Source: Rickettsiales bacterium (GTDB lineage Bacteria > Pseudomonadota > Alphaproteobacteria > Rs-D84). From it: a stretch of 64,000 nt of DNA. Below the pieces are notes generated by a model. It was not told where the DNA came from and ran no database searches. It saw nothing but the letters and a program-made list of their open reading frames with translations. Both the position numbers and the translations under genes were made by a program. Positions 2,898 through 60,010 of this stretch are shown piece by piece. Location: positions 63,237 to 127,236 of the forward strand of contig JAITCH010000010.1 of assembly GCA_031283185.1 (NCBI GenBank), given 5' to 3'. How positions within the stretch are numbered: position 1 is the stretch's first letter; the number at the start of each line of letters is the position of its first letter.

Positions 2898-2970
2898 GCA
2901 GGTGGGGGTTTCCTGCCCCACACTCATCTCCCCTTGTCATTCCCGCGAAGGCGGGAATCTCAAATTGTTA
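2898..2970. repeat. composite repeat family B copy (degenerate G-rich hairpin + GTCATTCCCGCGAAGGCGGGAATCTCAAATTGTTA), overlapping the 3' end of the GIY-YIG gene
   Basis: Sequence match to 29117-29194 and 55347-55453. Confidence 0.75.
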
Positions 2971-10461: not shown

Positions 10462-10504
10462 ATTCCCCTCCAAGGTGGAGGGGTGCCCGAAGGGCGGGGT
10501 GGTT
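10462..10504. repeat. terminal half-copy of the composite repeat (AATTCCCCTCCAAGGTGGAGGGGTG + GC hairpin + GGGGTGGTT)
   Basis: Matches the ends of the copies at 5123-5249 and 35317-35454. Confidence 0.75.
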
Positions 10505-10529
10505 GAGTTTTGTAGAGAGAGAAAAACTC

Positions 10530-12395
10530 GTGAATATATTTCTAATTCTTATCGCATTCCTGCTTATGGCGGGATATTATTATATGGACTCGCCGTCATT
10601 GCGTGGCGCGGCGAAATCGTCAGAGGAAATTTTAGAAACTTCGGATGCGGCGGCGGCGGTTGCTTGTCTTGTGGCAGAGCATAATGCGGAATTAGAGGGG
10701 CTGGACGAAGGCGCGACCCGCCGCGCGAAAAATCCCTGTGCGGACAAGTTTAAGATAACATCGGCATCAGCGTGTTTTAATGATGGCGAGGTTTCGCGGT
10801 CTTGCCGTGCGGACGCGAATAATCCCGGATCAATGCAGCGGTTTGTCATATCCCGGTCGGAATGGGCTGGTTCGGAAATGTCCGGCAGCATAATGGAAAC
10901 ATTGCGGAAGAAATATAAAAATACATCCGGGCTGGGGATTGTTATGGCATCGGTTTCGGATGGCGATGAAGATGCTGGTATGACGATAATGTCGGCGGGT
11001 CGGAAACCCGTTGCGATTGATCCCGAACTTGTTCGGCTGGCAAAGTTGCAGGCCGGGGACTTGGCGTATATCTCGCATCATTCCGGGGATGAATTAGAGG
11101 CGCGTAATATAAAGAAGGAGGCCGAAACGATTTCTTGCGCCAAGGGCGAGGTCAAGGTTTTCCGCTTTCGTAATTGGCGGTGCGAGCAGCCGACCCCTGT
11201 AAAGGTTTGTCAGGGCGATACGGTTTATGACAGGGATTTGGATGAATGCGTAGATAATGTTGCGAATACGATAGTGTGCGGCGGGTCAGAGACGGCGGTG
11301 GTTATTGACGGGGTGTGGACTTGCCAGCCGCCCAAGGTTGCAAAGGAATGCCCAACTGGCAAAACGGCAAGTTTTGATTATGACGCGCTTGAATGGGTGT
11401 GCGTGGGCAATCCGGCAGCCGGTGATTTCAAGAAATGCGCTGGCGCATCAAATGCTGGTGCGAATTGTAGCGATTGTGAAGCGGCGGTTCAAGATGATGA
11501 AAGTTGCGAAATTTCGTGTATTCCGAACGCGGCGAAACTGACTTGGAAAAGTTGTTATCCCGATGTGGGCGAATGTAATGGCGGTGATGGAACCAAGGCG
11601 TTTTATTTCGGCTTTCCAAATGATGCGAGTTATAATGCGAGGGCGATGCAGTTGGTGGCGGGGCTTGCGGCGGCGGGGATTCCGCGGACGGATATGCATT
11701 CTGCGAACAGGAAATTTAATTGTTTGGATTGCGCGCCGTTCAAAGTAAGCACGGAAAATATTTTTGCTCCTTATATAGCGTCTTGTGTTTTCGAAGGGAC
11801 GCATTCTTCGGTGTGCGGCGCGAATTCGGTTTTTGTGCCGTCCCCGGTGGTTGGGGAAAACGGGCGATGCGAGAGTTTAGAATTGCGACCTGAATTGGTT
11901 CCGCCTTGCCCGAATGGATATGCGCGGGCGACATTAAGCGCGGCGTGTAGTCCGAAATGGTGCGGCGGGGATAACGGATCGGCGGGGGTATATTGCAGCA
12001 CCAGTCGGCAACTTATGGTTCTTGCGCCCGAAGGCTGTGCATATTGTATAAATCCTCGACCGGGTCAGGTTCCGATTGCCAGCGGGGTGGAGATTGATAT
12101 AAATAAGAATGCTGGGAATAACGGATATGCGGGCGGGGTCAAGGTTAGTTGGAGCGGTGAATACGGCTATGAGATTCCAGTTATTCCGCCAGAGTTGTCT
12201 GGGTTTAATTTGCTTGGTGGACGGCGTTTTGCAGACGAGAATATATTTGACGGCGGGCGGGTTATAAATCTGATGGATGCGATTGTTTGGGGCGACAAGA
12301 CGGGGATGCCTGTGCCGATGCCAGTTGCTGTTCCCCAAGGCAAGATTGAATGTGATATGACTGGCTCCCACTGCTCAGCCAATCAAAATCCATAG
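10530..12395 (+). CDS. large cysteine-rich protein with an N-terminal signal anchor (hypothetical; start uncertain, TTG 10503 or GTG 10530)
   Basis: A ~620-aa ORF with a hydrophobic N-terminus (VNIFLILIAFLLMAGYYY) and more than 40 Cys. No domain is recognised. Confidence 0.5.
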   Translation: MNIFLILIAFLLMAGYYYMDSPSLRGAAKSSEEILETSDAAAAVACLVAEHNAELEGLDEGATRRAKNPCADKFKITSASACFNDGEVSRSCRADANNPGSMQRFVISRSEWAGSEMSGSIMETLRKKYKNTSGLGIVMASVSDGDEDAGMTIMSAGRKPVAIDPELVRLAKLQAGDLAYISHHSGDELEARNIKKEAETISCAKGEVKVFRFRNWRCEQPTPVKVCQGDTVYDRDLDECVDNVANTIVCGGSETAVVIDGVWTCQPPKVAKECPTGKTASFDYDALEWVCVGNPAAGDFKKCAGASNAGANCSDCEAAVQDDESCEISCIPNAAKLTWKSCYPDVGECNGGDGTKAFYFGFPNDASYNARAMQLVAGLAAAGIPRTDMHSANRKFNCLDCAPFKVSTENIFAPYIASCVFEGTHSSVCGANSVFVPSPVVGENGRCESLELRPELVPPCPNGYARATLSAACSPKWCGGDNGSAGVYCSTSRQLMVLAPEGCAYCINPRPGQVPIASGVEIDINKNAGNNGYAGGVKVSWSGEYGYEIPVIPPELSGFNLLGGRRFADENIFDGGRVINLMDAIVWGDKTGMPVPMPVAVPQGKIECDMTGSHCSANQNP

Positions 12396-12422: not shown

Positions 12423-13310
12423 CTAAACCCTTGAAAACTTGCTGCGAAGTTTGTGGCGCAAACTTTTACTTGGAATCGGCATTACAAATATATAAAGAAA
12501 GAAGTTGTATATTGCGTTCGCCAGAAATGTTTTATAAAATGGCGACATTTTCGCATATTTCCACCATATGCCTGACATTCTGGTCGGAAAAAACCAAGGC
12601 TTTTTCCCGGTGTAGTGGATAATACCGATTTCCTTGCCGCGTGCGCGGTCGCAGTGTATGCGAAAGTTGTATGTCGTATCGCCGTCATTGCACATTGCAA
12701 GTTTGCCTTTGAATGCGACACTCATAAGGCCTTGTTCGTATGACAGGTCTTTGTTTTTTAAGATTTCTGCAAATGATTCATAAACTTTGGATTCGCGGAT
12801 TAATTTCAGATTCAGTGCGACTACCCCTGCATTAAATTCGCAAATATCTTTATATGCGGATCGTCTTGCGGACAAATGAAATGCGTTGCCGACTGCAAAC
12901 GCTGCCATATAATTATCACCTAAATCTATATCCGCAAGTTCGTCCAATGGCTTCAATATGATTGTATCATCGTCCAAATGAATAACCCTGTCAATGTTGG
13001 GCAGCAAGCGGTATGAATCCATTTTGTAATAACAGATGCCGCCGCCAAAGGCCATATTTTTATTATAAGGTATGGATGCGTTTTTTTCATCAAAATCAAC
13101 GAACTCAATGGAAGACTCGGCATCTATTCCGGCTACAATTTCTGTCATTTGTTTTTGTGCATCTAAATTTCTGAAAAAATCCGCATTAACTATGCAATGA
13201 ATTGCATAATGTGAATCGCCCTTATTTTTCAATAGCGATATTATGGATACCAAGGTGGTTTTCCACCGCGTATTATCAAAAGTATAAGAGACATCAATAG
13301 TTTTTTTCAT
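12423..13310 (-). CDS. glycosyltransferase family 8 (LPS/LOS glycosyltransferase-like)
   Basis: A DxD motif (HLDDDTI) and the GT8 C-terminal motif IIHYTGKKPW. Confidence 0.8.
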   Translation of the reverse strand: MKKTIDVSYTFDNTRWKTTLVSIISLLKNKGDSHYAIHCIVNADFFRNLDAQKQMTEIVAGIDAESSIEFVDFDEKNASIPYNKNMAFGGGICYYKMDSYRLLPNIDRVIHLDDDTIILKPLDELADIDLGDNYMAAFAVGNAFHLSARRSAYKDICEFNAGVVALNLKLIRESKVYESFAEILKNKDLSYEQGLMSVAFKGKLAMCNDGDTTYNFRIHCDRARGKEIGIIHYTGKKPWFFPTRMSGIWWKYAKMSPFYKTFLANAIYNFFLYIFVMPIPSKSLRHKLRSKFSRV

Positions 13311-26498: not shown

Positions 26499-27503
26499 AT
26501 GAAAAAAATAGATCTTGTATATCTTTGGGTAGATGGCAGCGATGCGAAATGGCAGGCGAAAAAAAATGCCGCATTGAAAAAAGCAGGCATTTATAAAAAG
26601 ACTTCTGCGACATCTGCGAATCGTTGGCGCGATAATGACGAGTTGAAGTATTCGTTAAGGTCTGCGGAAAAATTCGCGCCGTGGATAAATCATATATATA
26701 TTGTGACAGACAGGCAGAAACCAAAATGGTTGAAAGAAAGCGCGCGCTTATCAATTATCAATCACGAACAAATTATGGAAAAAAAGTTTTTGCCGAACTT
26801 TAATGCATCAGCCATTGAAATTAATATATATAAAATTCCAGGGCTTTCGGAACACTTTCTTTATGCGAATGATGATATGTTTTTCGGCCGCCCAGTTAAG
26901 CCGGACTTTTTCTTTGATAGACGGGGTAATCCGATAGTGATTATGACAGGACGAAATAATTGGCGTGCTTTTGCGGGACACAAAACGCGGAATCTCTTCA
27001 AAACAATGAAGTGGAATGCCTTACGATTTGTCCAGCGCGTCTTCGGCGAAAAATATAATTTAACATTCAAACACGCGATAGAGCCATATCGCAAATCGTA
27101 TATGCAGGAAATGGCCGACAAATTTTATAAGGACATAATTGTGCCAAGTATGACGCAATTCCGAGACCGGGCGAATGTGCAGAGAGTTGTATTGCCACTT
27201 ATTGACAATGCGATGGGGCGCAATACGATAATGCTTAATTGGCGCGATGGTAAGAATCGGATAATTTATAATGTCCACCGCGAGCATAGGTTCTGGCATT
27301 TCATTCGTTGGATGTTTGCGGCATTGTTCGGATATATAAAGTATGATTGTTATGACAAGCAGTGGCGGATGAACAAAATTATTCAGAAACGCCACCCAGC
27401 ATTATTTGTGATAAACGATACGGCGGAATCTGATGCTGATTTTATCCGCACTGCGAATTTGATGAACGAAATGTTTCCAAAAAAATCCCAATTCGAAAAA
27501 TAA
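26499..27503 (+). CDS. Stealth-family protein (capsule polysaccharide phosphotransferase-like)
   Basis: CR1-like IDLVYLWVDGSD, and a CR2-like LYANDDMFF. Confidence 0.65.
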   Translation: MKKIDLVYLWVDGSDAKWQAKKNAALKKAGIYKKTSATSANRWRDNDELKYSLRSAEKFAPWINHIYIVTDRQKPKWLKESARLSIINHEQIMEKKFLPNFNASAIEINIYKIPGLSEHFLYANDDMFFGRPVKPDFFFDRRGNPIVIMTGRNNWRAFAGHKTRNLFKTMKWNALRFVQRVFGEKYNLTFKHAIEPYRKSYMQEMADKFYKDIIVPSMTQFRDRANVQRVVLPLIDNAMGRNTIMLNWRDGKNRIIYNVHREHRFWHFIRWMFAALFGYIKYDCYDKQWRMNKIIQKRHPALFVINDTAESDADFIRTANLMNEMFPKKSQFEK

Positions 27504-28330: not shown

Positions 28331-28870
28331 TTAGAATTCTGTCTTAAACCCCAATCTTACAGATTCTGAATTTGCGGACACTTGAATCTTATCTTCATGC
28401 TTACCAACTAACACCCATGTAAATAAAGCTGAAACTGCTGCTCCTGCTATCACATCATGGGTATAGTGTGCTCTTATCTCTACTCTTTGCCAAGCAACTA
28501 TACCAGACATTATGTAAGGTGCGATTGCTTGCTTCCAACCATACCTTTTATGGACAAACATAGCCCCAGAGAAAGCACCTGCGGAATGTCCGCTCGGGAA
28601 AGACATATTATCAATCCCATTAGGCCTTTCTTCTTTCACAGTTCTTTTAAGTCCTTCCACCATAAGTTGAGAAGCAACTATCGAACTTGTTAATTGTAAA
28701 GCTCCTGCCCAATCTTCTTTACCAGCTGTCATTCCATAAGCATAAAATACCGAAGCGGATAAAAATAGATCACCCATTACACCCTTGTTCGTAAATGGAC
28801 CAGCATAAACTTCATTTGTCGTCAATGCCCAACAAATAAAGATTGTACCAAGAGTTCTAAGCCCTGACAT
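28331..28870 (-). CDS. PAP2-family phosphatase (lipid phosphate / lipid A phosphatase-like)
   Basis: PAP2 motifs KRTVKEERP, PSGHS and HYTHDV. Confidence 0.8.
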   Translation of the reverse strand: MSGLRTLGTIFICWALTTNEVYAGPFTNKGVMGDLFLSASVFYAYGMTAGKEDWAGALQLTSSIVASQLMVEGLKRTVKEERPNGIDNMSFPSGHSAGAFSGAMFVHKRYGWKQAIAPYIMSGIVAWQRVEIRAHYTHDVIAGAAVSALFTWVLVGKHEDKIQVSANSESVRLGFKTEF

Positions 28871-30679: not shown

Positions 30680-32119
30680 ATGAAAAAATACATAACCACG
30701 CCGATTTACTATATGAATGCCGCGCCCCATATTGGCAGCGCATATACCACCGCAATGTGCGATATTTTGCGCCGCGCTTATATCCGCCAAGGGCACGAGG
30801 TTTTCTTTACCAGCGGCAGTGATGAGCACGGCCAGAAAATGCAAGAGGCTGCGGAACGCGCCGGTATGTCATTTACGGAATTTTTGGATAAACAAAGCGC
30901 GCGGTTTAGGGAACTTACGATTGCGCTGAATGCCGCGCCGGATTTCTTTATTCGCACCAGTATGGATCAGCATAAAAAGATTGTCAGCGAATGGCTGGCG
31001 GACGCGCATCAAAAGGGCATTTTGGTAAAGAAAAAGTATAAGGGGCTTTATTGTGTCGGCTGCGAGCAGTTCAAGAAAGAATCAGATTTGATAGAGGGCG
31101 GCCTGTGCCCAGACCACCGCAAAGCACCGGTTGAAATGGAAGAAGAAAATTACTTTTTACCATTAGAGCCGCACCGCGAATGGTTGCGGGAATACATTGC
31201 GAAAAATCCCGAATGGATTCAGCCGGAAAGTTATCGCGCTGAAATTCTTAATATGTTATCAGAGCCGTTGGAGGATTTGTCCATTTCGCGGCCCCGGTCG
31301 CGGGTTGCACTGGGGATTGAATTTCCATTTGACGGGGATCATATAACTTATGTTTGGTATGACGCGCTGATTAATTATGTGTCTTCATTGCGTATAAACA
31401 AGTTTGATGAATTTTGGGCGGGCGCGATTCATGTAATTGGCAAGGACATATTAAAACCGCATTGTATTTTCTGGCCGATAATGTTGCGCGTTATGGGTAT
31501 GCCCCCGGCGCACCGCACATTTATACACGGATTTTGGACGGGCGAGGGCGGAATAAAAATGTCAAAGTCGCTGGGGAATGTAATTGATCCGTTTGAAGTT
31601 ATTGATGAAATCGGCGCGGACGCGTTAAGGTTTTACTTCGCACAGAACGCGGCGATTGCAAGGGATTCGACTATATCGCGGGAGTTGCTGAGAAAGGGCT
31701 ATGAAACCTTGGCGAACAATTTCGGCAATTTGTATCTGCGAACTTTTAAGATGATTGAGAAATATAATGTAGAATTCCCCTCCAAGGCTTGTCGCGCCGA
31801 AACGAAGTGTAGGCGGATGGAGGGGTCGGCGAAGCCGGGGGTGGTTGAGAATCTATCCGACATCCAAACCCTTGCGAATGATATTTTACGGCGCAGTTCG
31901 GAGTTAAATTTGTATATAGATCAGACGCAGCCGTGGGCATTGGCAAAGGACGAGGCGAAGAGGGATGAGTTGGTGCAGGTGCTGCAAACATTGGCGAATG
32001 GGGTTTTGGAATTGGCAGATGCGGTTGCGCCGATTATGCCGGATACTTCGGATAAAATTATTCAGTCATTCAAAACCAAAGAGTCCGTAGTCCTGTTTCC
32101 AAAGTTGGAAGATAAATAA
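30680..32119 (+). CDS. metG: methionyl-tRNA synthetase (short form)
   Basis: HIGH motif PHIGSAYT, zinc knuckles CVGC...CPDH, and KMSKS. Confidence 0.9.
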   Translation: MKKYITTPIYYMNAAPHIGSAYTTAMCDILRRAYIRQGHEVFFTSGSDEHGQKMQEAAERAGMSFTEFLDKQSARFRELTIALNAAPDFFIRTSMDQHKKIVSEWLADAHQKGILVKKKYKGLYCVGCEQFKKESDLIEGGLCPDHRKAPVEMEEENYFLPLEPHREWLREYIAKNPEWIQPESYRAEILNMLSEPLEDLSISRPRSRVALGIEFPFDGDHITYVWYDALINYVSSLRINKFDEFWAGAIHVIGKDILKPHCIFWPIMLRVMGMPPAHRTFIHGFWTGEGGIKMSKSLGNVIDPFEVIDEIGADALRFYFAQNAAIARDSTISRELLRKGYETLANNFGNLYLRTFKMIEKYNVEFPSKACRAETKCRRMEGSAKPGVVENLSDIQTLANDILRRSSELNLYIDQTQPWALAKDEAKRDELVQVLQTLANGVLELADAVAPIMPDTSDKIIQSFKTKESVVLFPKLEDK

Positions 32120-32123
32120 AATT

Positions 32124-32402
32124 CTAATGATGCATCGAATGGCAATTATGACAAACCGATACCAACCAGTCGATGGGTTCTCTGCCGATGTTCCTTGCAT
32201 ATTTTAAGTGATGAACTTGTGTCGCGCGAGCACCACAATATACGCAACGCCAATTATCTCGCTTGAACACCAAATAACGCTTTCGTTGCCAAGCATCTGA
32301 TTTAAGGTAGTCGTTCCGATAATAATCTCTCCGCCATTTCCGCTTCAAATTATTAAAAAACACAAACAAGATTATTAAAACTATTGAAAACAAAATTTGC
32401 AT
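32124..32402 (-). CDS. membrane-anchored HNH endonuclease-like protein (92 aa)
   Basis: An N-terminal TM helix followed by CVYCG...HHL...CHNCH. Confidence 0.65.
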   Translation of the reverse strand: MQILFSIVLIILFVFFNNLKRKWRRDYYRNDYLKSDAWQRKRYLVFKRDNWRCVYCGARATQVHHLKYARNIGREPIDWLVSVCHNCHSMHH

Positions 32403-32403
32403 T

Positions 32404-33243
32404 TTAGTCGTTCCGGTTAAATTTTAAAACAGAATTTTTATTATATGGGCTTGCATATTGCATTGGTTGTGATTTTTCCAAATAGACTATAATTACAAGA
32501 ACCAAATCCATAAACCAACTTATTTCTTCATTGTCAATGTCATGCGAATCAAAGCCCGGGGTCAACATATTAACATGTTTATAACAACAATATTTAGAAT
32601 AATAATTCGAGAAAGATTTTGCAAATTGATTTTCGCCAAGATTTTCCAAATTATCTAATTTCTTTGAGAATGCTCGGACATAACCTTCTGGATCCGGTCG
32701 TTTGTAAGAGTCTCTTAAAAGTTTTATTTTTTCTGCATTAGTTCCGCCGCGAGTGTTTAGTTTTGTGATCGCTTCTTTGTGCATTTCTTCATAAGTTTTA
32801 TGATTTGCTTTATCCAACTTAACTATGCTTGCGCCACTCTGATTGAGAAATTTCAATAAGGATATATGTGATTGTTGAGATGCAAGGTCGTCAAGATTGT
32901 TTTTATCCATATCAAGTATTATAATCATCCGTCCAACAGCGGAACGCGCTACACATTTATTGAAATTAAGAAGTTTAGGTTCTTTATCATTATCTTTTAT
33001 ATAGCTCAATATCGCACAGGTCTCCAACATCTGACCCGCTGTAAGGAATGCATCATAATAACATTTATTTTCTAGTAGAATTCCAAAGGATTTTATTGAA
33101 CTGCAAATGCGTTCATATAAAAGCCATAAAATATAAAGCATTGTGTCTTCGTTATTAAAAGCAGGGCGCGACATAGGGACGAAATCTTTTATGATTTGGA
33201 TTTTGCCCTCAATATTCCAATTATATTTGCGAGAATTCGTCAT
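32404..33243 (-). CDS. hypothetical protein (279 aa), operonic with the HNH gene and the lipoprotein gene
   Basis: A 1-nt gap to the HNH gene, and a 4-nt overlap with the upstream lipoprotein gene. No domain is recognised. Confidence 0.5.
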   Translation of the reverse strand: MTNSRKYNWNIEGKIQIIKDFVPMSRPAFNNEDTMLYILWLLYERICSSIKSFGILLENKCYYDAFLTAGQMLETCAILSYIKDNDKEPKLLNFNKCVARSAVGRMIIILDMDKNNLDDLASQQSHISLLKFLNQSGASIVKLDKANHKTYEEMHKEAITKLNTRGGTNAEKIKLLRDSYKRPDPEGYVRAFSKKLDNLENLGENQFAKSFSNYYSKYCCYKHVNMLTPGFDSHDIDNEEISWFMDLVLVIIVYLEKSQPMQYASPYNKNSVLKFNRND

Positions 33244-33674
33244 TCCATTTCTTTTTGCGGGATATAATAATCCGAAACTTTATAAAAATTATTAAACTTC
33301 TTTTTTTCATTCTCATTTATTAAAAGAATTGTGTAGTATTGGCTATGTTTTGTTATTTCGGTAGGTATATAGACACCATTTGATACATAGCCGCTTTGGG
33401 ATTTGCTTGTGTTGCCATCTTTTGACAACATAGAAAAATATTCATACCCCGTGCCATTAACAAATTTGGCAGTATTTCGCATACAACTATCTTTAACAAA
33501 AGTGTAATTTGCATACCCATTTCCGCCACAGAAAATACTAAATAATTTTCCATCTAGATGTTCGAATCCTGCTCCTAAAATTTCATTGGTTTTAAGTTCC
33601 TCCACATCAAATCCCGCGGTTGGTTGGGCGCAACCAAAACAAATTATAGGTAAAATCAAAGGCAGTTTTTTCAT
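33240..33674 (-). CDS. hypothetical lipoprotein (144 aa)
   Basis: Signal peptide plus lipobox ICFGCAQ. Confidence 0.5.
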   Translation of the reverse strand: MKKLPLILPIICFGCAQPTAGFDVEELKTNEILGAGFEHLDGKLFSIFCGGNGYANYTFVKDSCMRNTAKFVNGTGYEYFSMLSKDGNTSKSQSGYVSNGVYIPTEITKHSQYYTILLINENEKKKFNNFYKVSDYYIPQKEME

Positions 33675-33746
33675 ATCAAATCCTTTTTAAGAGACACCAG
33701 GATTATAGTCCAGGAAAATACAAAAACAATAAAAAAATTCCCAGCC

Positions 33747-33776
33747 TTGATTTTTACCGCCATTTCAGACTATAAT
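33747..33776 (+). promoter_or_regulatory. promoter TTGATT-N18-TATAAT placed 6 nt before the ATG (leaderless transcript predicted)
   Basis: Hexamers read from the sequence. The start given in the ORF track is the TTG of the -35 hexamer. Confidence 0.45.
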
Positions 33777-33782
33777 CATTCT

Positions 33783-34343
33783 ATGGCAAAGAATCTTTAT
33801 ATTATCGCAGGTGCAAATGGAAGCGGCAAAACAACGCTTGCCCACGAACTTCTTCGTGAAGAAAAAGACCTGGTCTTTCTCAACGCAGACGAAATCGCAC
33901 GGGAAATCAATGATGATTTGGGTCTTCGTGCGGGTAAAATTGTCCTGGAACGCGCTGACGAATTATTAAAGGCAAAAAAATCGGTTGCTTTGGAATCCAC
34001 CATTTCGGGAAAATATCACGAGCGTCTAATTGAAAAATTCAAGAAATCTGGGTATGAAATTGTCCTAATTTATGTCTTCCTTAATCTCCCGGAACTCAAC
34101 ATTGCAAGAATCAAAAATCGGGTTGCGCTTGGTGGGCACAATGTCCCTGATCAAGATGTCATAAGGCGTTTTCATAAAAGCGTTAAAAATTTTTGGGCGG
34201 CGACAGGGCTTGCCGACCGGTGGAAACTTTATTACAATGGCGATGACAATTATGAGCAGATTGCAGCCGGTCGGGATGATGTCCTTGAAATTCTGAATGA
34301 TGACCTTTATAATCGGTTTAAGAAAGGGCTGAAAAATGGATAA
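33783..34343 (+). CDS. zeta-toxin family P-loop kinase-like protein (COG4185-like)
   Basis: Walker A GANGSGKTT and the family-typical RV.LGGHNVP...IRRF motif. Confidence 0.65.
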   Translation: MAKNLYIIAGANGSGKTTLAHELLREEKDLVFLNADEIAREINDDLGLRAGKIVLERADELLKAKKSVALESTISGKYHERLIEKFKKSGYEIVLIYVFLNLPELNIARIKNRVALGGHNVPDQDVIRRFHKSVKNFWAATGLADRWKLYYNGDDNYEQIAAGRDDVLEILNDDLYNRFKKGLKNG

Positions 34344-35522: not shown

Positions 35523-37865
35523 ATGAAGATATTGAAACACCAATTTTTATGGTTTTCTGCTGCTTTGCTTGCGCTTGCATTGCCCGCGGCGTCCGAGCCT
35601 CGGCCAGATTTGGCGGACAATGAAGAAATAATTATTGATGAAGAAATTTATACCGAAGAATCAGAAACCCCGGCGGAACAGGGCGCGCGTCCAGTTATGG
35701 CATCTGCACCGGGAATGGTTCGTACGGGAACTCGGTCGGTTCGTGCTGGCGCAGCACCTGTGGCGGGTGCGATGACGCAGCAGCAGGGCAGGGGCGTTGT
35801 CAGCCGCCAGCCGGGAAATTTACAGCCTGCATTTAATAGTGGGCGCGTGGTCAGCGGGCGAAGTGCGGTGAATACGGGTCAGGTGAATGCGAATACAGCG
35901 CAAAGGTCGGCAACGACATCTCGTCCGACTGCGAATGCAGCAACCCCAAGATCTGGCGAAATTCATAGCCGCACTACTGGGCGGACTGGTGCGGTTCAAA
36001 CGGCACCTGCGGCTGATTCTGCGCGGACAATTTCTGCGCGGACACCTGGAACTACGGCAAGTGGTGTGAATACTGCGCGCGCATCGGTTATTACTTCGGT
36101 GAACAAGGCGTCTCCGGCGGCGGCGCGGCGGTCAAACAATACGGCGCGTAATGCTACGGCGGATGTGGTTGATCCTTCGGTGGAAAAGTATTCCAAGATG
36201 CGCCAGGAAGTCGAAAATCTAAAAACCGAAATGAACATTAATAATGACAAGGCAGAGGTTTATGCCCAGGTTTATGATAATTGCGAGGCGCGGTTCTTCG
36301 GATGTATGGATGACATTTGCGAACGGGTCAGCGATGAGATGGGTCGTTGCGCTTGTTCGCCGAATGCGGATACATATAAAGAAAATGCAGAGGCGTTAAA
36401 GCAGGCGAAGATTGACTTGCAGGATACGGTTCAGAATATCCAGTATTTGGGATTGACGGCAGAGGAAGTTAATTCGCTGTTCACAATTACCGAGGCCGAA
36501 GGCGCCTTAGAGGCGAATCAGTTTGGCGGCGGCGACCAGTCGGAATTGAAAAAAATGATTATGGGGATTCGTGATAACATTCCGGACATAAATAATCTCA
36601 GTTCTACCAGCAGCGGGATATTGACATCTTCGACTGGTTGGAATTTGGACGCAGATTTTTCGATTATGACGGATATGAATTCGTTCACATTTGGTAATGT
36701 AAAGGGCAATCAGTTCAATGACATTTCTGGTATGACTGGCGGCGATTTGTATAAAAGCGCGAAGAATGTGTGTCAAACCATTATGAACGAATGCAAAAAG
36801 AATAAGGTTGATGTGGACTTGATGCAGGCGAAATATGATGTAGAGGTTGGCAAGGCCTGCGTAGATTATAAAGGTATGTTAGAGGATCAGACGCAGTCAT
36901 TAAAAACCTTGAACAGGAATGCGAAGTATATGTTGGAACGCGCAAGATTTTCCGTGCATCAGAACAAGAACGCGTTGGATTTGAAGGGTTGCGTGCTGGA
37001 AATTGATAAATGTATGCAAGATGATTTCGTATGCGGTAAGGATTATAAGAAATGCCTCGATCCGACTGGTCAGTATATTTCAGTGGATAGCAAGGTTGTT
37101 CCCGGCGCAGATTTGCCTGTTGGCCAGATAAGGTTGTGGGGCGCACGGAAAAGCGCAGTTAATTATAGCGAACTTGCGGGTCTTGGTGCCACTTCTAAAG
37201 ATATAGTGTCTGTGAATGGTGCGGCGGGATCTACTAATTACTTGGTTAATATGCTTACCTCCAAGGTGGGCGAGATTGATAAACTGACGGGTAATGCGAC
37301 CAGTGGATATTGCGCGGGTGTTATGAGGCAGTGTCAGCGGTTCAGTTATGATTCGAATGCACAGTATAATTCGAATAATCTTGTGATTAAGAATTATGTA
37401 TATATGGCATTGCCAAAGATTATGTCGGCACAGGATACGATGATAAGCAATTATCGGACGCAGTGCACAACGGACTTAAAGCAGTGTTATCAGACGCAGT
37501 TGTTGACTTTCAATACTGGGCAGTATTATGGCGGACAAATAAACGGCAGCCAGTTGACCTGGGCGCATCTGAATTCAGCATTGTATGCGTGTGATAATAT
37601 AGGGCTTTCGTGCGCGTTCACTGTATTTAGCGGCGCGGATAATTTAGGAGAAACCGATAGCAGCGCGACAGCGAAGCAATGTCCGAGATATATAAAATGC
37701 GATGCAGAAAAAGGAACCTGTGATAATAAAGCAACCTTTGATGCCGATGGTTCTGCCCAAATATGTTCTAGAAGTATGATGATTAATTTGATTCAGGGCT
37801 TGTTGCAGTGTAATGGAACTTATCCAAAGACTTGGGAACCTGATAATAATGCTGTTTGCAAATAA
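35523..37865 (+). CDS. large secreted protein (780 aa): signal peptide, ~200-aa disordered R/T/A/S-rich region, coiled coil, Cys-rich C-terminal domain
   Basis: Signal peptide MKILKHQFLWFSAALLALALPAA and low-complexity composition. No domain is recognised. Confidence 0.55.
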   Translation: MKILKHQFLWFSAALLALALPAASEPRPDLADNEEIIIDEEIYTEESETPAEQGARPVMASAPGMVRTGTRSVRAGAAPVAGAMTQQQGRGVVSRQPGNLQPAFNSGRVVSGRSAVNTGQVNANTAQRSATTSRPTANAATPRSGEIHSRTTGRTGAVQTAPAADSARTISARTPGTTASGVNTARASVITSVNKASPAAARRSNNTARNATADVVDPSVEKYSKMRQEVENLKTEMNINNDKAEVYAQVYDNCEARFFGCMDDICERVSDEMGRCACSPNADTYKENAEALKQAKIDLQDTVQNIQYLGLTAEEVNSLFTITEAEGALEANQFGGGDQSELKKMIMGIRDNIPDINNLSSTSSGILTSSTGWNLDADFSIMTDMNSFTFGNVKGNQFNDISGMTGGDLYKSAKNVCQTIMNECKKNKVDVDLMQAKYDVEVGKACVDYKGMLEDQTQSLKTLNRNAKYMLERARFSVHQNKNALDLKGCVLEIDKCMQDDFVCGKDYKKCLDPTGQYISVDSKVVPGADLPVGQIRLWGARKSAVNYSELAGLGATSKDIVSVNGAAGSTNYLVNMLTSKVGEIDKLTGNATSGYCAGVMRQCQRFSYDSNAQYNSNNLVIKNYVYMALPKIMSAQDTMISNYRTQCTTDLKQCYQTQLLTFNTGQYYGGQINGSQLTWAHLNSALYACDNIGLSCAFTVFSGADNLGETDSSATAKQCPRYIKCDAEKGTCDNKATFDADGSAQICSRSMMINLIQGLLQCNGTYPKTWEPDNNAVCK

Positions 37866-41766: not shown

Positions 41767-42612
41767 TTGCGGCGTAGTGTCCGCGACATTTTAATTTTTG
41801 GCATAATAAATTATATAAAATTTTTTCGCGCGGCTAAACGCGCAGAACACAAACTTAAATTTCCACATAAACTTTCCATTGTTGCCATCGCAAAAAACGA
41901 AGGCGCAAATTTTCAGGAATGGATTGAATATCATCGCATTGTTGGCGTTGAAAAATTTTATATTTACGATAATGAATCCACTGACGATACGAAAAAAGTT
42001 CTTGAACCATATATAAAATCCGGCGTGGTGGAATACACTTATTTCCCTGGGCAGAAAATGCAAAAGCCTGCTTATGCAGATGGGCTTAAAAAATGCAGAT
42101 TTGATACGAAGTGGGTCGCGCTCATAGACCTAGATGAATTTATTGTCCCGATAAAGCACGAAAAAATTTCCGATTATTTGGACGAACTTCCCGATGATGT
42201 GGGATGCGTTATGGTACCTTGGATTACATATGGATCCAGCGGACATCAAGCCAGACCAATCGGATTGGTTATTGAAAGTTATAAAATGCGTAGTGCGGAT
42301 TTCAAGTTGGGAAATCTCGCGGCGGACAAGCAGTGTAAAAGCATTATTAATCCTCGGTTTGCTATTCGATTGAACGGCGTGCATATAGGCAGCAGCATAT
42401 TGAAAAAGATACGAAGTGATGTGTTAAGGTGCAATCATTATTACAGCAAATCGTGGGAAGAATTCGCTGCTCGCCGATCTAGGGGTGATGTTAGGTTTGG
42501 CAATAATTATGCCCAAGCGACTTTCAACAAAGATTTATTTGATCGTATAAACAGGGATAATTTTTATGACCCAATTATGGATAAATACATCCCGCAATTA
42601 AAAACCATTTGA
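41767..42612 (+). CDS. glycosyltransferase family 92 (DUF23)
   Basis: The AKNE...EWIEYH...FYIYDNESTDDT motif. The TTG start is uncertain. Confidence 0.6.
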   Translation: MRRSVRDILIFGIINYIKFFRAAKRAEHKLKFPHKLSIVAIAKNEGANFQEWIEYHRIVGVEKFYIYDNESTDDTKKVLEPYIKSGVVEYTYFPGQKMQKPAYADGLKKCRFDTKWVALIDLDEFIVPIKHEKISDYLDELPDDVGCVMVPWITYGSSGHQARPIGLVIESYKMRSADFKLGNLAADKQCKSIINPRFAIRLNGVHIGSSILKKIRSDVLRCNHYYSKSWEEFAARRSRGDVRFGNNYAQATFNKDLFDRINRDNFYDPIMDKYIPQLKTI

Positions 42613-42644
42613 AAACTCACTTATACATTGATATAATTCGCATT

Positions 42645-43421
42645 ATGAAAATAATAGTCAGTTTAACATCATTCCCGGCGGCGATTCCGTTTGCGGTGAA
42701 CGCGATAAAAAGCATTATGAACCAAAGCGTTCTGCCGGATAAAATCGTTTTGTATCTGACGGCGGAACAATTCCCCGATAAAAAACTTCCAGCAGAATTG
42801 TTGAATTTAGTAGAATCATCTTCGCTGTTCGAAATCCGTTTTTATTCAGAAAATATTCGTTCATATACGAAACTGATTCCCGCGCTGAAAGACTTCCCGG
42901 ATGACATAATCATAACGATTGATGACGATATAAATTATCCGCGTGATTTGATAAAGAAATTGTTGCGCGCGCATAAAAAATATCCGAATGCGATTGTGGC
43001 GCATCGGGTTCGCCGAGTGCGATGGGATGCTGATGGAAATTTGCTGCCTTATAAGAAATGGGGTCGCTATATGCGATTAAGGTATTATTTATGGTCGTGC
43101 CGTCCACGCCTTTGCAATTTGTTGACTGGTGTGGGTGGGGTGTTGTATCCGCCGCACTCCTTGCCGCCCGAGGCGAGCGATGCCGGAACATTTATGAAAC
43201 TTGCGCCGACTACGGACGACATATGGTTTTGGTTGATGGCGGCCAAGACAGGAACCGGGACTGCCCCGGTCAGATGGGGATTTGTAAATCAACTGGGTGA
43301 TATGCACAAGCCAAGGGATATAACATTAAGTTCGGTTAATATAAAAAGCGCGGTGGATGTGAACCGAGAGAATGCCGAAAAGATAATCGCACATTATAAA
43401 ATCAAAACCCCTATCAAATAA
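42645..43421 (+). CDS. putative glycosyltransferase (DxD-containing, capsule/LPS biosynthesis-like)
   Basis: IVSLTSFP near the N-terminus, and a TIDDD motif. Confidence 0.5.
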   Translation: MKIIVSLTSFPAAIPFAVNAIKSIMNQSVLPDKIVLYLTAEQFPDKKLPAELLNLVESSSLFEIRFYSENIRSYTKLIPALKDFPDDIIITIDDDINYPRDLIKKLLRAHKKYPNAIVAHRVRRVRWDADGNLLPYKKWGRYMRLRYYLWSCRPRLCNLLTGVGGVLYPPHSLPPEASDAGTFMKLAPTTDDIWFWLMAAKTGTGTAPVRWGFVNQLGDMHKPRDITLSSVNIKSAVDVNRENAEKIIAHYKIKTPIK

Positions 43422-43474: not shown

Positions 43475-44077
43475 TTAAAAATTCCACGAAACTCCTAATG
43501 CATAAAAGTCATATACATAATTCATATCGCCAGTGTCGCCGTTGGAAAAATGTTGCATTATTAATTCCAAGTTCCAAGAATCTGTCATACGCCATCCGGC
43601 AACCATTTTGAAAGGCAGAATGAATTTTGTGTTCAGGCGAGCGTTCTGTTTCCCTTGAATGGCGATACCGATTCCGGCACCAAGATATGTGCGTTGGGTC
43701 AGTGCGAATCCGACTTCTTGGGTCAGCACGGCGATTTCATTGCCATATTCTTGCCAGTCGGTGTGTCCAGTCCAAACGGCGTGCTTGCCGTAGTTGTGAT
43801 GACCGAATCCCAGGGTTTTGGTGAAGCCGATTGTTTGCCGACCTGGCAGACGAAAGAAGGTGTTTGGTTGGCTGTATGAAGCGGCAATCATATAATATGG
43901 AACCGGGACATCCAGGTGTTTGAAGAGGATGAGTTCGGCGGAGTCAAAGCCTTGCCCAATGGCGAGTCCCAGTTGATTTTGTTTATCGCCAAAGAAAGGA
44001 TTGAATTTCGTCCCTTCGGTTTCCGCGTTTGCTGCGCCGCATAAAATTGCAAAACATAAAATTATTTTCTTAATCAT
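43475..44077 (-). CDS. PagL-like outer-membrane lipid A deacylase family protein (paralog 1)
   Basis: Signal peptide, YSQPNTFFRLPGRQ, a His-x-Ser catalytic-like motif QHFSNGD, and a C-terminal ...GVSWNF. Confidence 0.55.
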   Translation of the reverse strand: MIKKIILCFAILCGAANAETEGTKFNPFFGDKQNQLGLAIGQGFDSAELILFKHLDVPVPYYMIAASYSQPNTFFRLPGRQTIGFTKTLGFGHHNYGKHAVWTGHTDWQEYGNEIAVLTQEVGFALTQRTYLGAGIGIAIQGKQNARLNTKFILPFKMVAGWRMTDSWNLELIMQHFSNGDTGDMNYVYDFYALGVSWNF

Positions 44078-44322: not shown

Positions 44323-44562
44323 CTAAAAATGTTTTTTAGAAAATAGCCTGCCATTTCCAGTTTTCAAATATGCCTCAAATTTTTCTGCCTTGTCTCTATT
44401 TTCAAATGCAAAATAGTTTTTAATTTTCCAAGGCTTGAATTTGTTTGTATGTATTGAGCATCCTTTGTTATGTTCATTAAGTCGTTTTTTCAGGTCGTCA
44501 GTTTGTCCCACATAAAATCTGTCTGGATTGCTTATGCTTTGTAAGATATATACATAAAACAT
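44323..44562 (-). CDS. GIY-YIG nuclease family protein (80 aa)
   Basis: MFYVYILQS...RFYVGQTDDLKKRLNEHN. Confidence 0.7.
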   Translation of the reverse strand: MFYVYILQSISNPDRFYVGQTDDLKKRLNEHNKGCSIHTNKFKPWKIKNYFAFENRDKAEKFEAYLKTGNGRLFSKKHF

Positions 44563-44673: not shown

Positions 44674-44747
44674 TGGTTGGGGCAACTGGATTCGAACCAA
44701 TATAGTCAGAATCAGAATCTGAAGTCCTACCATTAGACGATGCCCCA
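44674..44747 (-). tRNA. tRNA-Gln (anticodon CTG), CCA encoded
   Basis: The reverse complement folds as tRNA. It has a U1:A72 pair like E. coli tRNA-Gln, anticodon loop TTCTGAT and T-loop TTCGAAT. Confidence 0.85.
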
Positions 44748-52694: not shown

Positions 52695-53270
52695 ATGAAA
52701 AAATTATTATTTCTTATCTGCACTTTACACTTTCCATTCTCCGCCTTGGGTGCGAATCCTATGCTTGGGGACAATCAGAATTCCATCCGCATTGAAGGCG
52801 TGAATATGGTTGATTGGTATGCGCGGGACATTCGGGTTTTTTATCTCAGTTATGCACAGCCGAATATTTTTTTTCGTTTGCCTGGTCAGCGGAATTTACA
52901 AATGGTTTATATCAGCGGTCGGACGAAATATAGCCCGGAATACAGACCTGGGCGATTGCATTCTGTGCAAATGGTGAATGGAGAAACTAGTCGGGATGTA
53001 TCGCAATTTGCGTGGGGCTTGACGCAGGATGTGGTGTTTTTATCTGGCTGGGGATTTTATATGGGCGCGGGGATTGGGCCTTTTGTAAAGGAGTATAAAA
53101 ATGATTATATCGGGACAAAGTTCATAATGGGCGAGCGTTTTTTTGCAGGTTATAGATTGAATAATAGTTTCAATTTGGAATTGGTGGCGCACCATTTTTC
53201 CAATGGACATCTCAGCGCGATGAACAAGGGTCTGGACGGCTTTGGTCTTGGCATTGCCTGGAATTTTTAA
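52695..53270 (+). CDS. PagL-like lipid A deacylase family protein (paralog 2)
   Basis: YAQPNIFFRLPGQRN, HHFSNGH, and a C-terminal GIAWNF. Colinear with the copy at 43475-44077. Confidence 0.55.
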   Translation: MKKLLFLICTLHFPFSALGANPMLGDNQNSIRIEGVNMVDWYARDIRVFYLSYAQPNIFFRLPGQRNLQMVYISGRTKYSPEYRPGRLHSVQMVNGETSRDVSQFAWGLTQDVVFLSGWGFYMGAGIGPFVKEYKNDYIGTKFIMGERFFAGYRLNNSFNLELVAHHFSNGHLSAMNKGLDGFGLGIAWNF

Positions 53271-53283
53271 GGAGTAAAAACAA

Positions 53284-53856
53284 ATGAGAAAAAACATACT
53301 TATACTTTTGGCTGCGATGCTGATAATTGGTGTTGCATCGGTGGCGCGCGGGGCGCGGGAAAATCCATTGTTTGGGGATACGCAAAGCCAGTTTGGACTT
53401 AATGCGGGACATGGTGTTGGCGGCGGGAATATCTGGCGGATGGTTCCGTTTAACGATTGGCGCATAGAGCCGTTTGGAGCGTATTGGGCGGAATATAGCC
53501 AGCCGTTCGAGTTTTTTCGTCTTCCTGCGCGGCAGACTTTGCACGCGGGGATGTTCGCTGGGTATGAAGATATGTCCCGGAATTATACCGAGCCATTTTT
53601 AGGTCTTTCGTGGGATGTAGTGCCGCTTAGTTGGCGCGGAGCGTATGTTGGCGCGGGGCTTGGGGTTTATATAAAGCCGACTTTTCGTGGGCGTCAGGAT
53701 TCGTTGTTGATGTTCGGGGAGAAGTTGTTTGCTGGGTATAGGATAAGCGCGGCGTGGTCGGTAGAATTATGGACGCGGCATTTTGATAGTGGTGGATTGA
53801 CACCGATTAATGGGGGCTATAATTTCTTTGGTCTGTCTGCATTGTATAACTTTTAA
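53284..53856 (+). CDS. PagL-like family protein (paralog 3, His-x-Ser motif altered to RHFDSGG)
   Basis: YSQPFEFFRLPARQT, and a C-terminal LSALYNF. Confidence 0.5.
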   Translation: MRKNILILLAAMLIIGVASVARGARENPLFGDTQSQFGLNAGHGVGGGNIWRMVPFNDWRIEPFGAYWAEYSQPFEFFRLPARQTLHAGMFAGYEDMSRNYTEPFLGLSWDVVPLSWRGAYVGAGLGVYIKPTFRGRQDSLLMFGEKLFAGYRISAAWSVELWTRHFDSGGLTPINGGYNFFGLSALYNF

Positions 53857-53923: not shown

Positions 53924-55342
53924 ATGCTTAAATTTGCTAAAATTTTTGGTGCTGTGTGTGGGGTGCTTGTTGTTGCTGGTGGCGCGAATGCTGCTGCGAC
54001 AGAGGCTGATTCTTCGGAACAGGTTATACAGACCACGGGCGGCGCGCAGAATATCGTAATTAGGGTCAAGGTTCGTTCAAAGTCGTCAGAATCTGGCACG
54101 GCGACCACTGCGGGCACTGCGGCGGCATCGTCAAAGCCTGTGCGTCGTAAGTTGAAATCTGGACCAGATAAATGGATTTATGAAAAGCCGAAACCGGTAG
54201 AGGTAAAGCAGGATGTGATAATTGACGGCAAGAATTCGGCAAAGAATTATGAATATGATTTAGAGCCGATTGATTGGGAGGATGACGAACAGGAATTGCC
54301 ACCTTCTCCAAAGCCGAGGGCAGTGGGCGAATGGCGGACGATAAGTGTAGATACGAATTTGGCGAATCCGTTTTTCCAACCACAGCAGGGCAGATTTACA
54401 TTTGATATAGATGCGAGACAGACAAATCATTCATTCAAATTCAAGGTTAAGGATGCTTATACGCCTAGTGTAGTGTATCCAGCGGGCGCTTCTAGTGTGA
54501 ATTTGGAAGGTAAAAAGTTTGGTTTTGATAATACTCAATCTCAGTATTTGGGACGAATTACATATGGTATTACAGATGCGTTAGAGATAAATGGAACGGT
54601 CGCTGGTTATGATCAGAGGTTTGTGTATCAAAATCGTTCGTTTGCTCTTGATTCAACCTTGGCGTTGGCAAATCCGCCGCATGATCTTACGAATGCTGGC
54701 AGTGGGTTGGAATCATGGGGGCTTGGTGTTGCGTGGCGCGTATATGATTATAACGAAGTTTTGTTCCAGGTGCGCGGTGAATACAGGCAGTTGCAGTATG
54801 AAAAAGCATCCGAGGTTCATCTTGGTGTGCAGGGCGGTATCGTTAATGGGCGCAGCACATTTTATGGACGATTGGGTCTGTATTTGTGGAATAATGAACT
54901 GGATGGATATGGATATGGGTTTGGATATGGGGCTACGGATTTTCCAGAAAACTTGTGGGAAAAGGTGTTGTTTGAAACTGACAACAAGCATCCGATTTAT
55001 GTGGAGGGGACAGCCGGTATCTTTACTGCGTTGAACGATAGTGTGTCGCTGGATGTCAATACCAGTTTGGCAGATTTAAGTTGGCGTAGTGTTTGGAGCA
55101 TTGGCAGTCAGTTGGCGTTCCAGCCTGTGGATGCATTTATGTTTATGCTATACGGGAGTTATAATCTGTATGATAGTTCCGCTGGTGTCAGCACTTCTCC
55201 CGATGATAATCAGTTAGTGTTATGGTCAAATATGTCTCCGCAGTATGGTTCTGACCGGGTTGGTTTCCGTCCTGTGAGCGGCATCAATGTTTCCGCCCCG
55301 CGCGAATTCACCTTCGGAGCCGGAATAAAGGTCTTGTTCTAA
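53924..55342 (+). CDS. hypothetical outer-membrane protein (472 aa, porin-like, C-terminal ...KVLF)
   Basis: Signal peptide and a C-terminal Phe. Confidence 0.5.
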   Translation: MLKFAKIFGAVCGVLVVAGGANAAATEADSSEQVIQTTGGAQNIVIRVKVRSKSSESGTATTAGTAAASSKPVRRKLKSGPDKWIYEKPKPVEVKQDVIIDGKNSAKNYEYDLEPIDWEDDEQELPPSPKPRAVGEWRTISVDTNLANPFFQPQQGRFTFDIDARQTNHSFKFKVKDAYTPSVVYPAGASSVNLEGKKFGFDNTQSQYLGRITYGITDALEINGTVAGYDQRFVYQNRSFALDSTLALANPPHDLTNAGSGLESWGLGVAWRVYDYNEVLFQVRGEYRQLQYEKASEVHLGVQGGIVNGRSTFYGRLGLYLWNNELDGYGYGFGYGATDFPENLWEKVLFETDNKHPIYVEGTAGIFTALNDSVSLDVNTSLADLSWRSVWSIGSQLAFQPVDAFMFMLYGSYNLYDSSAGVSTSPDDNQLVLWSNMSPQYGSDRVGFRPVSGINVSAPREFTFGAGIKVLF

Positions 55343-58513: not shown

Positions 58514-60010
58514 ATGCAAAAATTTATATTTGGAAGTTTGGCGGTTCTGTTCAGTGCATCTGCTGCGTCTGCGAATACATATTATAATCCTGGGAATGTG
58601 GGTCAGTATAACCAAGGTGGATTTATAGGGCAGGGTAATGCCAGTCAGCAGTATCAACCTCGCGGCGGCGGTTATCAGGGAAATTATCAAGGCGGTGGCT
58701 ATCAGGGTGGCGGCTATCAGCCGCAACAGAATCAGCAATTTCGTCCTTATGGACAGGGCGCGCCCGGCGCGTATGGCCAGCAGAATCGCGGATACGGATA
58801 TGGTCAACAGGGGCAGCAGTCTCGCGGACAGAAACCGCAGGCGAGCAAGGCGTTCGAGTTTGATGTGTTTGCGGGATATGAGGGCGCAGATTTTGGATTC
58901 AATATGAATAGTGCTGGGTCAGAGATTAGCTTTAATAATATCACTTGGCAAAAGATTGGCGCGGCGGGCAAGGGGACATTTGACTTGGGCGGCACGGCTG
59001 TGGAGATAAAGGGCGGATTGGAACTTGGCACGCAGGGCAAGTCCGGCACCGTTACGGACGATGATATGCAGAATGGAGGAATATGGAGTGGCTTTGTATA
59101 TTTCTCAAATGGCGCGCAAGATCCTTCGCTTTTGAATTGGTCTAGTCTGGGCGGCGATAACGAATGGGTCAATTTTGGATCCACAGAATTGGCGTATGGC
59201 GTGGGCGAGCAGGGCAAAGGAAGTTCTCTTGGATTTTTTGCATCTGTTGGTCTGGCGAATGGTTGGACATTGGCGGATAATATAACTTTAAAGCCATCGG
59301 TTGGTTATAGATATGAAAGTTATAAATTGATTGGACAGAATGTTATAACGACATCGGTTCTTGCAATTTTGGGCGAAGGATATGACGAGCAGGGTGTTCC
59401 ATATATGATGGGGGATTTGCAGGCGGTTGCTGATTTCTGTGGGAACGCGTCAAATGCTTGTGATGTTATGGTTGTTTTTGATAAGGATGACATACCTCAT
59501 TTTGTCGGATTTGTTATGGGGCTAGACGATTATGACGAGCCGTGGTTTTTAACTTTGGCTTCGGCGCACGCATTGGATGGCATTACGCATAAGTATGATG
59601 TTGTTTGGGCGGGACCATTTATCGCAGCGGACATAGAGGCGAAGTTGATGCCAAAGATGACGGCGAATATGCGGATTGAAATAGGTTTCCCTGGATATTC
59701 GTCCGAGGCGGATCAGCCGTTCCGTAGTGATTTGGCGCATCCAGTGGCGTTTAGGGATTCTGCGGGAATGTTCAGCGGGATGCATTATGGGTTGATGTTG
59801 GGCTATACGGCGGCGATTACGGACGGGATGTCGGTTGGGTTAGATTGGAAATGGGATTATTATGAAGTTAAGGGTGCGGCGAGCGAGAGTTTCTATGCGC
59901 GTGGTTATCCTGCATATGAGGAACATGGTCCAAGCTTTAAGATTGATAATGAAGTGAATGCCCGGTATAAGCAGTCTGGCCTCCGCGCCACCCTCAAAAT
60001 GAAATTCTAA
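58514..60010 (+). CDS. outer-membrane protein with an N-terminal Q/G/Y-rich low-complexity region (GGYQG repeats)
   Basis: Signal peptide and a ~90-aa QGY-rich region, followed by a predicted beta-barrel ending ...LKMKF. Confidence 0.55.
   Translation: MQKFIFGSLAVLFSASAASANTYYNPGNVGQYNQGGFIGQGNASQQYQPRGGGYQGNYQGGGYQGGGYQPQQNQQFRPYGQGAPGAYGQQNRGYGYGQQGQQSRGQKPQASKAFEFDVFAGYEGADFGFNMNSAGSEISFNNITWQKIGAAGKGTFDLGGTAVEIKGGLELGTQGKSGTVTDDDMQNGGIWSGFVYFSNGAQDPSLLNWSSLGGDNEWVNFGSTELAYGVGEQGKGSSLGFFASVGLANGWTLADNITLKPSVGYRYESYKLIGQNVITTSVLAILGEGYDEQGVPYMMGDLQAVADFCGNASNACDVMVVFDKDDIPHFVGFVMGLDDYDEPWFLTLASAHALDGITHKYDVVWAGPFIAADIEAKLMPKMTANMRIEIGFPGYSSEADQPFRSDLAHPVAFRDSAGMFSGMHYGLMLGYTAAITDGMSVGLDWKWDYYEVKGAASESFYARGYPAYEEHGPSFKIDNEVNARYKQSGLRATLKMKF

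Follow-up and report, generated by a model that had tools for sequence, protein, structure and literature searches.

The window considered here is the whole 64,000-nt stretch of contig JAITCH010000010.1 from a Rickettsiales bacterium (assembly GCA_031283185.1), and it contains three genes for small outer-membrane proteins of the PagL family of lipid A deacylases, here termed c1, c2 and c3 (Table 1). Two of these, c2 and c3, stand in tandem, and c3 belongs to a clade in which Asp occupies the position of the catalytic Ser. An earlier note, made from the sequence alone, had recorded the three open reading frames (ORFs), and all were found where it placed them and on the strands it gave. For c2, an in-frame GTG lies six codons upstream of the ATG; the ATG start yields a normal signal peptide. 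Pairwise identity among the three proteins is 33-35%, and they have in common the motifs NP-x-FG, YSQP (YAQP in c2) and FFRLP, a C-terminal NF, and an invariant Glu five residues ahead of an invariant His. The motifs listed in the earlier note, YSQP followed by FFRLP and the strands QHFSNGD (c1), HHFSNGH (c2) and RHFDSGG (c3), were thus recovered, with YAQP as the c2 form of the first. In the NCBI database each protein is named 'acyloxyacyl hydrolase [Rickettsiales bacterium]', on a 189.5-kb contig of a metagenome-assembled genome (MAG); c1 is 100% identical to an entry of this name, and the accession of c2 is MDR2685782.1.

All three proteins are members of the PagL family. Against the Pfam PagL model (PF09411, gathering score 23 bits) they scored 30.1 bits (c1), 39.5 bits (c2) and 27.0 bits (c3), with E-values from 6e-7 to 8e-10. 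These matches are far beyond chance, and PagL was the sole Pfam family to match any of the three at E <= 1. The earlier note had proposed three PagL-like paralogues and had named generic OmpW or OMP_b-brl barrels as the competing assignment; neither of these families matched c1, c2 or c3 in Pfam at that level, and c2 and c3 could moreover be aligned directly to Salmonella PagL. The sequence used was a 96-residue fragment, 'acyloxyacyl hydrolase [Salmonella enterica]' (P0203), retrieved with a profile of the c3 clade. In BLASTP alignments to this fragment, identity was 42% for c3 (97 residues, E 9e-18) and 35% for c2 (E 2e-11); c3 is thus 42% identical to the C-terminal half of the Salmonella enzyme. 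The C-terminal strings TEAYIRHFSNGSLT and GASISYNF of this fragment are identical to those in published pagL mutagenesis and cloning primers, which spell the Salmonella PagL motif ...YIRHFSNGSLT... and the C-terminus ...SISYNF (PMC4958258). Because NCBI already names all three proteins acyloxyacyl hydrolase, the PagL assignment, although correct, is not novel.

Structural models agree with this assignment. The AlphaFold2 models of c1 (mean predicted local distance difference test score, pLDDT, 87.5; predicted template modelling score, pTM, 0.81) and c3 (pLDDT 89.5, pTM 0.82) each have eight long beta-strands after a signal helix, as expected for the eight-stranded barrel of PagL from Salmonella Typhimurium and Pseudomonas aeruginosa (structure 2ERV). 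A signal peptide, an eight-stranded outer-membrane beta-barrel and a C-terminal aromatic residue were accordingly found, the barrels being modelled for c1 and c3. Foldseek matched the c1 model to 2ERV with an E-value of 1.3e-5 and a TM-score of 0.72 normalised to the target, and PagL was among the top PDB structure matches of both models. In addition, a profile built from 29 family sequences matched 2ERV at a marginal E-value of 0.014 with the catalytic register kept, H-F-S-N falling on H126-Y-S128-N129 and an invariant Asn on N136, whilst the column of Glu140 is a variable D/N/A in the profile (2ERV residue numbers follow the coordinates of the profile alignment).

The possibility that c1, c2 and c3 are generic OMP_b-brl or OmpW-type barrels wrongly assigned to PagL was weighed against these data. 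It draws on the modest Pfam scores (27-40 bits), on the failure of any NCBIfam model to match the three proteins, on a single-sequence phmmer search of the PDB with c2 that returned nothing even at E 10, and on the fact that many eight-stranded barrels have the same fold. Set against this are the exclusive match to PagL in Pfam, the agreement of the H-F-S-N-G strand and the Y-N-F C-terminus with Salmonella PagL, the catalytic register aligned to 2ERV by the family profile, and the name acyloxyacyl hydrolase, which is the one that the NCBI pipeline gives to PF09411 proteins. As such, a generic barrel identity is very improbable and can be regarded as largely refuted.

Within the family, the residues of the active site separate c3 from the other two proteins. 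The catalytic His of all three proteins faces the lipid from the penultimate strand (H176 in c1, H167 in c2 and H166 in c3) and its column is invariant in the alignments, whilst the nucleophilic Ser two residues further on is present in c1 (S178) and c2 (S169) and is D168 in c3. The H, S, N and G residues of the c1 strand are invariant or nearly so across the family. At the third triad position (His+14), c1 and c2 have Asp and 2ERV has Glu (Glu140); Asn is shared by the c3 clade and the Salmonella fragment. A conserved Asn adds to the oxyanion hole of PagL, its position being unspecified (PMC4402001). An Asn directly follows the nucleophile in c1 and c2, with S, D, N or A at that position in the c3 clade. 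Eight residues past the nucleophile, c1, c2 and the window c3 have a further Asn (N136 in 2ERV), and the c3 clade as a whole has N or D there. Thus c1 and c2 retain the lipid-facing His-x-Ser-Asn strand on which PagL of Salmonella and Pseudomonas depends, and a C-terminus in ...YNF is found as in the Salmonella enzyme. Judged from these residues, c1 and c2 are most likely active lipid A O-deacylases, which would use Ser as nucleophile and His as base in the manner of PagL (PMC4402001; PMC4958258) and would act in the outer leaflet, where they would release an acyl chain bound to lipid A through an ester, with an inferred positional specificity.

For c3, database searches returned seven relatives at the level of orthologues (50-58% identity), and an eighth, at 45%, came from a profile search. 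The resulting clade numbers nine proteins, all from uncultured Alphaproteobacteria, and the four named genomes are termite-gut MAGs. The motif H-[F/M]-D-x-[G/A]-G was found in 9/9, His and Asp being invariant. In pairwise alignment, Asp168 of c3 stands opposite Ser165 of the Salmonella protein, and the c3 model places W158, V160, L162, T164, H166 and D168 on the lipid-facing side of strand 7; by this strand parity the Asp would be exposed to the membrane just where PagL has its nucleophile. PagL and the nine c3-type proteins therefore differ by Asp in place of the nucleophilic Ser and by the loss of conservation of the Asn that follows it. The earlier note had read the third copy as having a shifted catalytic Ser, an interpretation that did not hold: since Asp is fixed in all nine members and the residue behind it varies, the Ser at +1 of the window protein appears incidental, and on the alignments the conserved change in c3 is from Ser to Asp. 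A further difference is a Lys conserved in 97/111 other members that has become Leu in all c3 members (T-K to S-L, at the top of strand 6), and several derived residues are common to the c3 clade and c2-type proteins alone.

This substitution is rare. The motif is covered by 217 family sequences, and their residue in the nucleophile column was Ser in 204, Asp in nine and another in four, with Asp confined to the c3 clade; the four remaining cases are isolated, and some seem truncated or frameshifted. Pro was seen at this column in two unrelated family representatives (P0137, HLPSGS; P0143, HFPKNS), so that the catalytic Ser may have been lost independently in other parts of the family. When 1.84 billion representatives at 50% identity were searched, a single one, the window protein (315 bits), stood for the whole c3 clade; the next match scored 182 bits, and matches came from only 162 clusters in all. 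Similarly, in a collection of 5.8 billion clusters no clade member scored below 252 bits, and the protein after them reached 191 bits. In a neighbour-joining tree of 130 sequences the Asp proteins form one group, the sisters of which (P0069, P0073 and P0068) keep the canonical Ser, and a single origin of the clade is likely. Since the nucleophilic Ser is absent from c3, and since deacylation in vitro is abolished in Salmonella PagL H163A/S165A (PMC4958258), we regard c3, on the strength of its sequence, as a family member by descent and not a canonical serine deacylase; it would be unable to form a seryl acyl-enzyme.

Besides its altered motif, c3 is marked by an association with c2. In the window, c3 starts 13 nt past the c2 stop codon, and the spacer reads TAA-GGAGTAAAAACAA-ATG; because it contains GGAG, c3 has its own Shine-Dalgarno sequence. 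No terminator-like site was found between the two genes in the window, and they are probably co-transcribed. A c2-type gene lies directly upstream of the c3-type gene, on the same strand and with a gap of 9-60 nt, at 8/9 loci (Table 1), and the c2-type proteins are themselves recognizable by the motif HFS[N/D]GH, with the +5 His in all nine. As the genes flanking the pair are unrelated from locus to locus, the pair is a conserved unit. An assembly artefact was considered and rejected, there being nine independent sequences and the window pair having been recovered in a separate assembly. Outside this group, Candidatus Enterousia and ruminant-gut relatives have one canonical copy only at the locus; the relatives are thus gut-associated (termite-gut MAGs and Candidatus Enterousia), which fits the remark in the earlier note that surface variation is common in host-associated bacteria. 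The sister protein P0069, with its canonical Ser, is encoded by the second gene of a PagL tandem just downstream of lptD, which suggests that the tandem predates the Ser-to-Asp change.

Additional features were observed beside these genes. At L039 (25-4213), from a sister lineage, the tandem of two canonical-Ser PagL genes of which P0069 is the second comes downstream of lptD, with two small ORFs in between, an arrangement that ties a PagL tandem physically to lipopolysaccharide assembly. In the window, a 472-aa ORF begins 67 nt downstream of c3 (53924-55342, plus strand); its product has a signal peptide, a C-terminal ...KVLF and no Pfam match, is probably a novel outer-membrane barrel, and is not kept beside the c2-c3 pair in other genomes. 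Small stand-alone ORFs with a GIY-YIG nuclease domain occur at 2937-3278 and 44323-44562 (both minus strand), the latter between c1 and a tRNA-Gln gene (44674-44747, minus strand), and a GIY-YIG ORF is also present on contig L036, beside the sole unpaired c3-type gene.

In order to compare the two members of the pair, identities amongst orthologues were calculated within the same pairs of genomes. The c3 orthologues were more similar to each other than the c2 orthologues in 28/28 pairs, with a mean identity of 57.7% versus 48.1%, and in the one comparison of the window with Lab288P3bin104, c3 equalled c1 in conservation, both being at 58%. A Mantel test gave a correlation between the distance matrices of c2 and c3 (r 0.73, p 0.0004), indicating that these two genes are co-inherited. 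As the closest distinct c3 orthologues are 66% identical, synonymous sites are saturated. The higher conservation in all 28 pairs and the Mantel correlation rule out c3 as a decaying or inactive relic, and the retention of the tandem at 8/9 loci, the slower change than in c2 and the co-diversification of the two genes instead mark it as a selected variant. In this it resembles pseudoenzyme paralogues that persist beside an active parent, where a catalytic residue is lost under strong purifying selection and adjacency is conserved; it differs from them in keeping an invariant His and an invariant replacement residue, which is unusual for a purely dead site. Moreover, characterized PagL genes are single, whereas the window holds three copies, including the conserved canonical-plus-variant tandem.

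Of the roles that c3 might have, the one we place first, still tentatively, is that of a selected, non-serine and probably non-hydrolytic partner of c2. Such a barrel would be made from the same transcript as c2, would bind lipid A or a bridging cation, and would modulate or complement the c2 deacylase rather than deacylate by itself. This role is favoured because the Asn after the nucleophile position is unconstrained and the conserved Lys is lost. The same two features, the variable residue in place of the putative oxyanion-hole Asn and the loss of the family-wide Lys, count against the reading that competes with it most closely, in which c3 is a lipid hydrolase of other chemistry whose lipid-facing His166/Asp168 dyad activates water; so too do the failure to identify a calcium-binding motif in c3 and the lack of a precedent, in the literature searched, for Asp at this PagL position. 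Speaking for such a hydrolase, the His and Asp are invariant in all nine proteins and stand exactly at the positions of the catalytic His and Ser, on the side of strand 7 where the active centre of PagL lies, the residue at His+14 is the Asn of the Salmonella fragment, and c3 is under more constraint than c2. His-activated water is also the means of hydrolysis in phospholipase A2 and in LpxR. The latter, a lipid A 3'-O-deacylase, is an outer-membrane barrel that has no serine nucleophile and combines His-activated water with calcium. It offers a model for hydrolysis by a His/Asp c3 but differs in having 12 strands and in belonging to another family, and no sequence relationship of c1, c2 or c3 to LpxR was detected. 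We consider this chemistry possible, and less probable than the partner role; were it to apply, the c2-c3 pair could have two specificities, for two acyl positions or two lipid classes.

A third role, that c3 has left lipid A biology altogether and become a small structural or adhesin-type eight-stranded outer-membrane protein (similar to OmpA-N, OmpX or NspA) beside its parent gene, would account for the one c3-type gene that has no adjoining PagL gene. It sits poorly with the tandem having outlasted, at 8/9 loci, a complete change of its neighbouring genes, with the retained catalytic His and the Asp fixed at the nucleophile position, and with the co-diversification of c3 and c2, as an unrelated function gives no reason to keep either the active-site strand or the linkage; it is improbable, and seems the least likely of the three. 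The partner role itself has to be held against several observations that weigh on it or on the steps leading to it. The invariance of His and Asp, together with the stronger constraint on c3, fits a still-catalytic His/Asp site equally well, and on contig L036 (3.4 kb) the c3-type gene follows dnaK, with no PagL gene ahead of it. Furthermore, the fold match cannot tell PagL from OmpA, NspA or OprF, and the Asp clade is only weakly supported as monophyletic by bootstrapping (47/100, and 24/100 without the motif columns), for which reason the motif census and the gaps in bit score were relied on instead of the tree.

A more far-reaching proposal is that c2 and c3 together form a two-barrel module for lipid A remodelling, with either a new His/Asp water-activating site or a heterodimer in the manner of OMPLA, its substrate pocket at the interface; we hold this to be conceivable and on the doubtful side. 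OMPLA (PldA) is an outer-membrane barrel whose outer surface bears a lipid-facing His-x-Ser-Asn-Gly strand; Asn completes its triad, and it is active only as a dimer, the substrate pockets being at the interface. It differs from the window proteins in being 12-stranded, in belonging to another Pfam family (to which they gave no match), and in being a calcium-dependent homodimer. As such, its dimer is an analogy and a lead for a c2-c3 heterodimer, not evidence for one.

The three genes had been placed by the earlier note within an expanded lipid A and surface remodelling repertoire, most components of which were present. Pfam matches were obtained for the proposed Stealth-family protein (by CR1 and CR2), the PAP2 phosphatase and the glycosyltransferase of family 8 (GT8; Table 1). 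For the Stealth protein, CR3 scored 19.1 bits, under the 24.2-bit cut-off, and CR4 was not detected with Pfam. Of two glycosyltransferases proposed for family 92 (GT92), one was confirmed; the second, encoded by the adjoining ORF (42609-43421), gave a family 2 (GT2) score of 22.8 bits against a cut-off of 23.3 bits and no GT92 match, and there was no further GT92 among the subset of window ORFs that was scanned. By a crude heuristic, about eight ORFs, the three PagL genes included, have both an N-terminus resembling a signal peptide and an aromatic residue at the C-terminus, one of them matching the Protochlamydia Pom family and one weakly OMP_b-brl. The surface genes form no cluster, being interspersed with the housekeeping genes accDA, plsX, fabH, tRNA synthetase genes, murJ, dnaK, ftsH, tilS, rpsD and tsf. 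Thus 'expanded repertoire' is a reasonable description and not a discrete feature, whilst 'extensive lipid A and surface variation' is a narrative resting on co-location within 64 kb.

Table 1. Features of the window and c2-c3 type gene pairs in other genomes and contigs
Feature	Position	Strand	Description
c1	43475-44077	minus	200 aa; canonical PagL-family outer-membrane barrel, signal peptide, end ...SWNF
c1 active-site strand H176-F-S178-N-G	43538..43552	minus	Family profile aligned to 2ERV H126-Y-S128-N-A
c2	52695-53270	plus	191 aa; canonical PagL-family barrel, HFSNGH subtype; first gene of the pair
c2 active-site strand H167-F-S169-N-G-H	53193..53210	plus	Aligned to H-F-S-N-G-S of Salmonella PagL
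c2-c3 spacer	53271..53283	plus	13 nt with GGAG Shine-Dalgarno sequence; sequence read directly
c3	53284-53856	plus	190 aa; barrel of the PagL family, Ser-to-Asp clade; downstream gene of the pair
c3 variant strand H166-F-D168-S-G-G	53779..53796	plus	D168 opposite Ser165 of Salmonella PagL
Stealth-family protein	26499-27503	plus	Pfam CR1 46.9 bits, CR2 142.5 bits
PAP2 phosphatase-family membrane protein	28331-28870	minus	Pfam PAP2 53.9 bits
GT8 glycosyltransferase	12423-13310	minus	Pfam Glyco_transf_8 79.8 bits
GT92 glycosyltransferase	41767-42612	plus	Pfam Glyco_transf_92 88.4 bits
c2-c3 type pair, Lab288P3bin104 (L001/L006)			c1, c2 and c3 types all in tandem
c2-c3 type pair, Emb289P3bin18 (L003/L018)			
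c2-c3 type pair, Nt197P3bin78 (L005)			
c2-c3 type pair, Nt197P3bin125 (L007)			
c2-c3 type pairs, three metagenome contigs (L034, L035, L037)			

Elsewhere in the window, a 498-aa secreted protein (58514-60010, plus strand) matches the Pfam family Pom (Protochlamydia outer membrane protein) at 30.7 bits, which is unexpected in an alphaproteobacterium. A single ORF of 567 aa (5301-7004, minus strand) joins an AccD zinc ribbon and carboxyltransferase domain to an AccA domain and is a fused acetyl-CoA carboxylase carboxyltransferase beta-alpha protein. The block at 32001-34000 has a G+C content of 0.353, compared with about 0.46 elsewhere, and contains a sub-threshold DUF5677-like ORF (32404-33243, minus strand), with a Zeta_toxin/AAA_33 ORF (33747-34343, plus strand) also at the block; possible explanations are an acquired island or what is left of a toxin-antitoxin system. 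Two large proteins, one of 780 aa with a signal peptide (35523-37865, plus strand) and one of 630 aa (10503-12395, plus strand), had no Pfam match.

Deacylation of the PagL type alters innate-immune recognition of lipid A, outer-membrane curvature and vesicle release (PMC4958258; PMC4402001). The assignment of c1, c2 and c3 to PagL is in itself routine and already public in NCBI; what is added is a natural and strongly conserved Ser-to-Asp form of PagL that travels with a canonical copy. Neither an Asp-variant PagL clade nor a conserved canonical-plus-variant PagL pair was described in the literature searched, the coverage of which was incomplete. The scope is narrow, comprising nine known sequences from a single uncultured lineage. 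A non-catalytic partner role would make c3 a rare case of a bacterial outer-membrane pseudoenzyme and would hint at regulation of PagL activity by a paralogue; if c3 is catalytic, a serine esterase barrel would have been turned to His/Asp chemistry. Should the pair have a new active site or form a heterodimer, a catalytic type or quaternary arrangement undescribed for PagL would have evolved in termite-gut Alphaproteobacteria.
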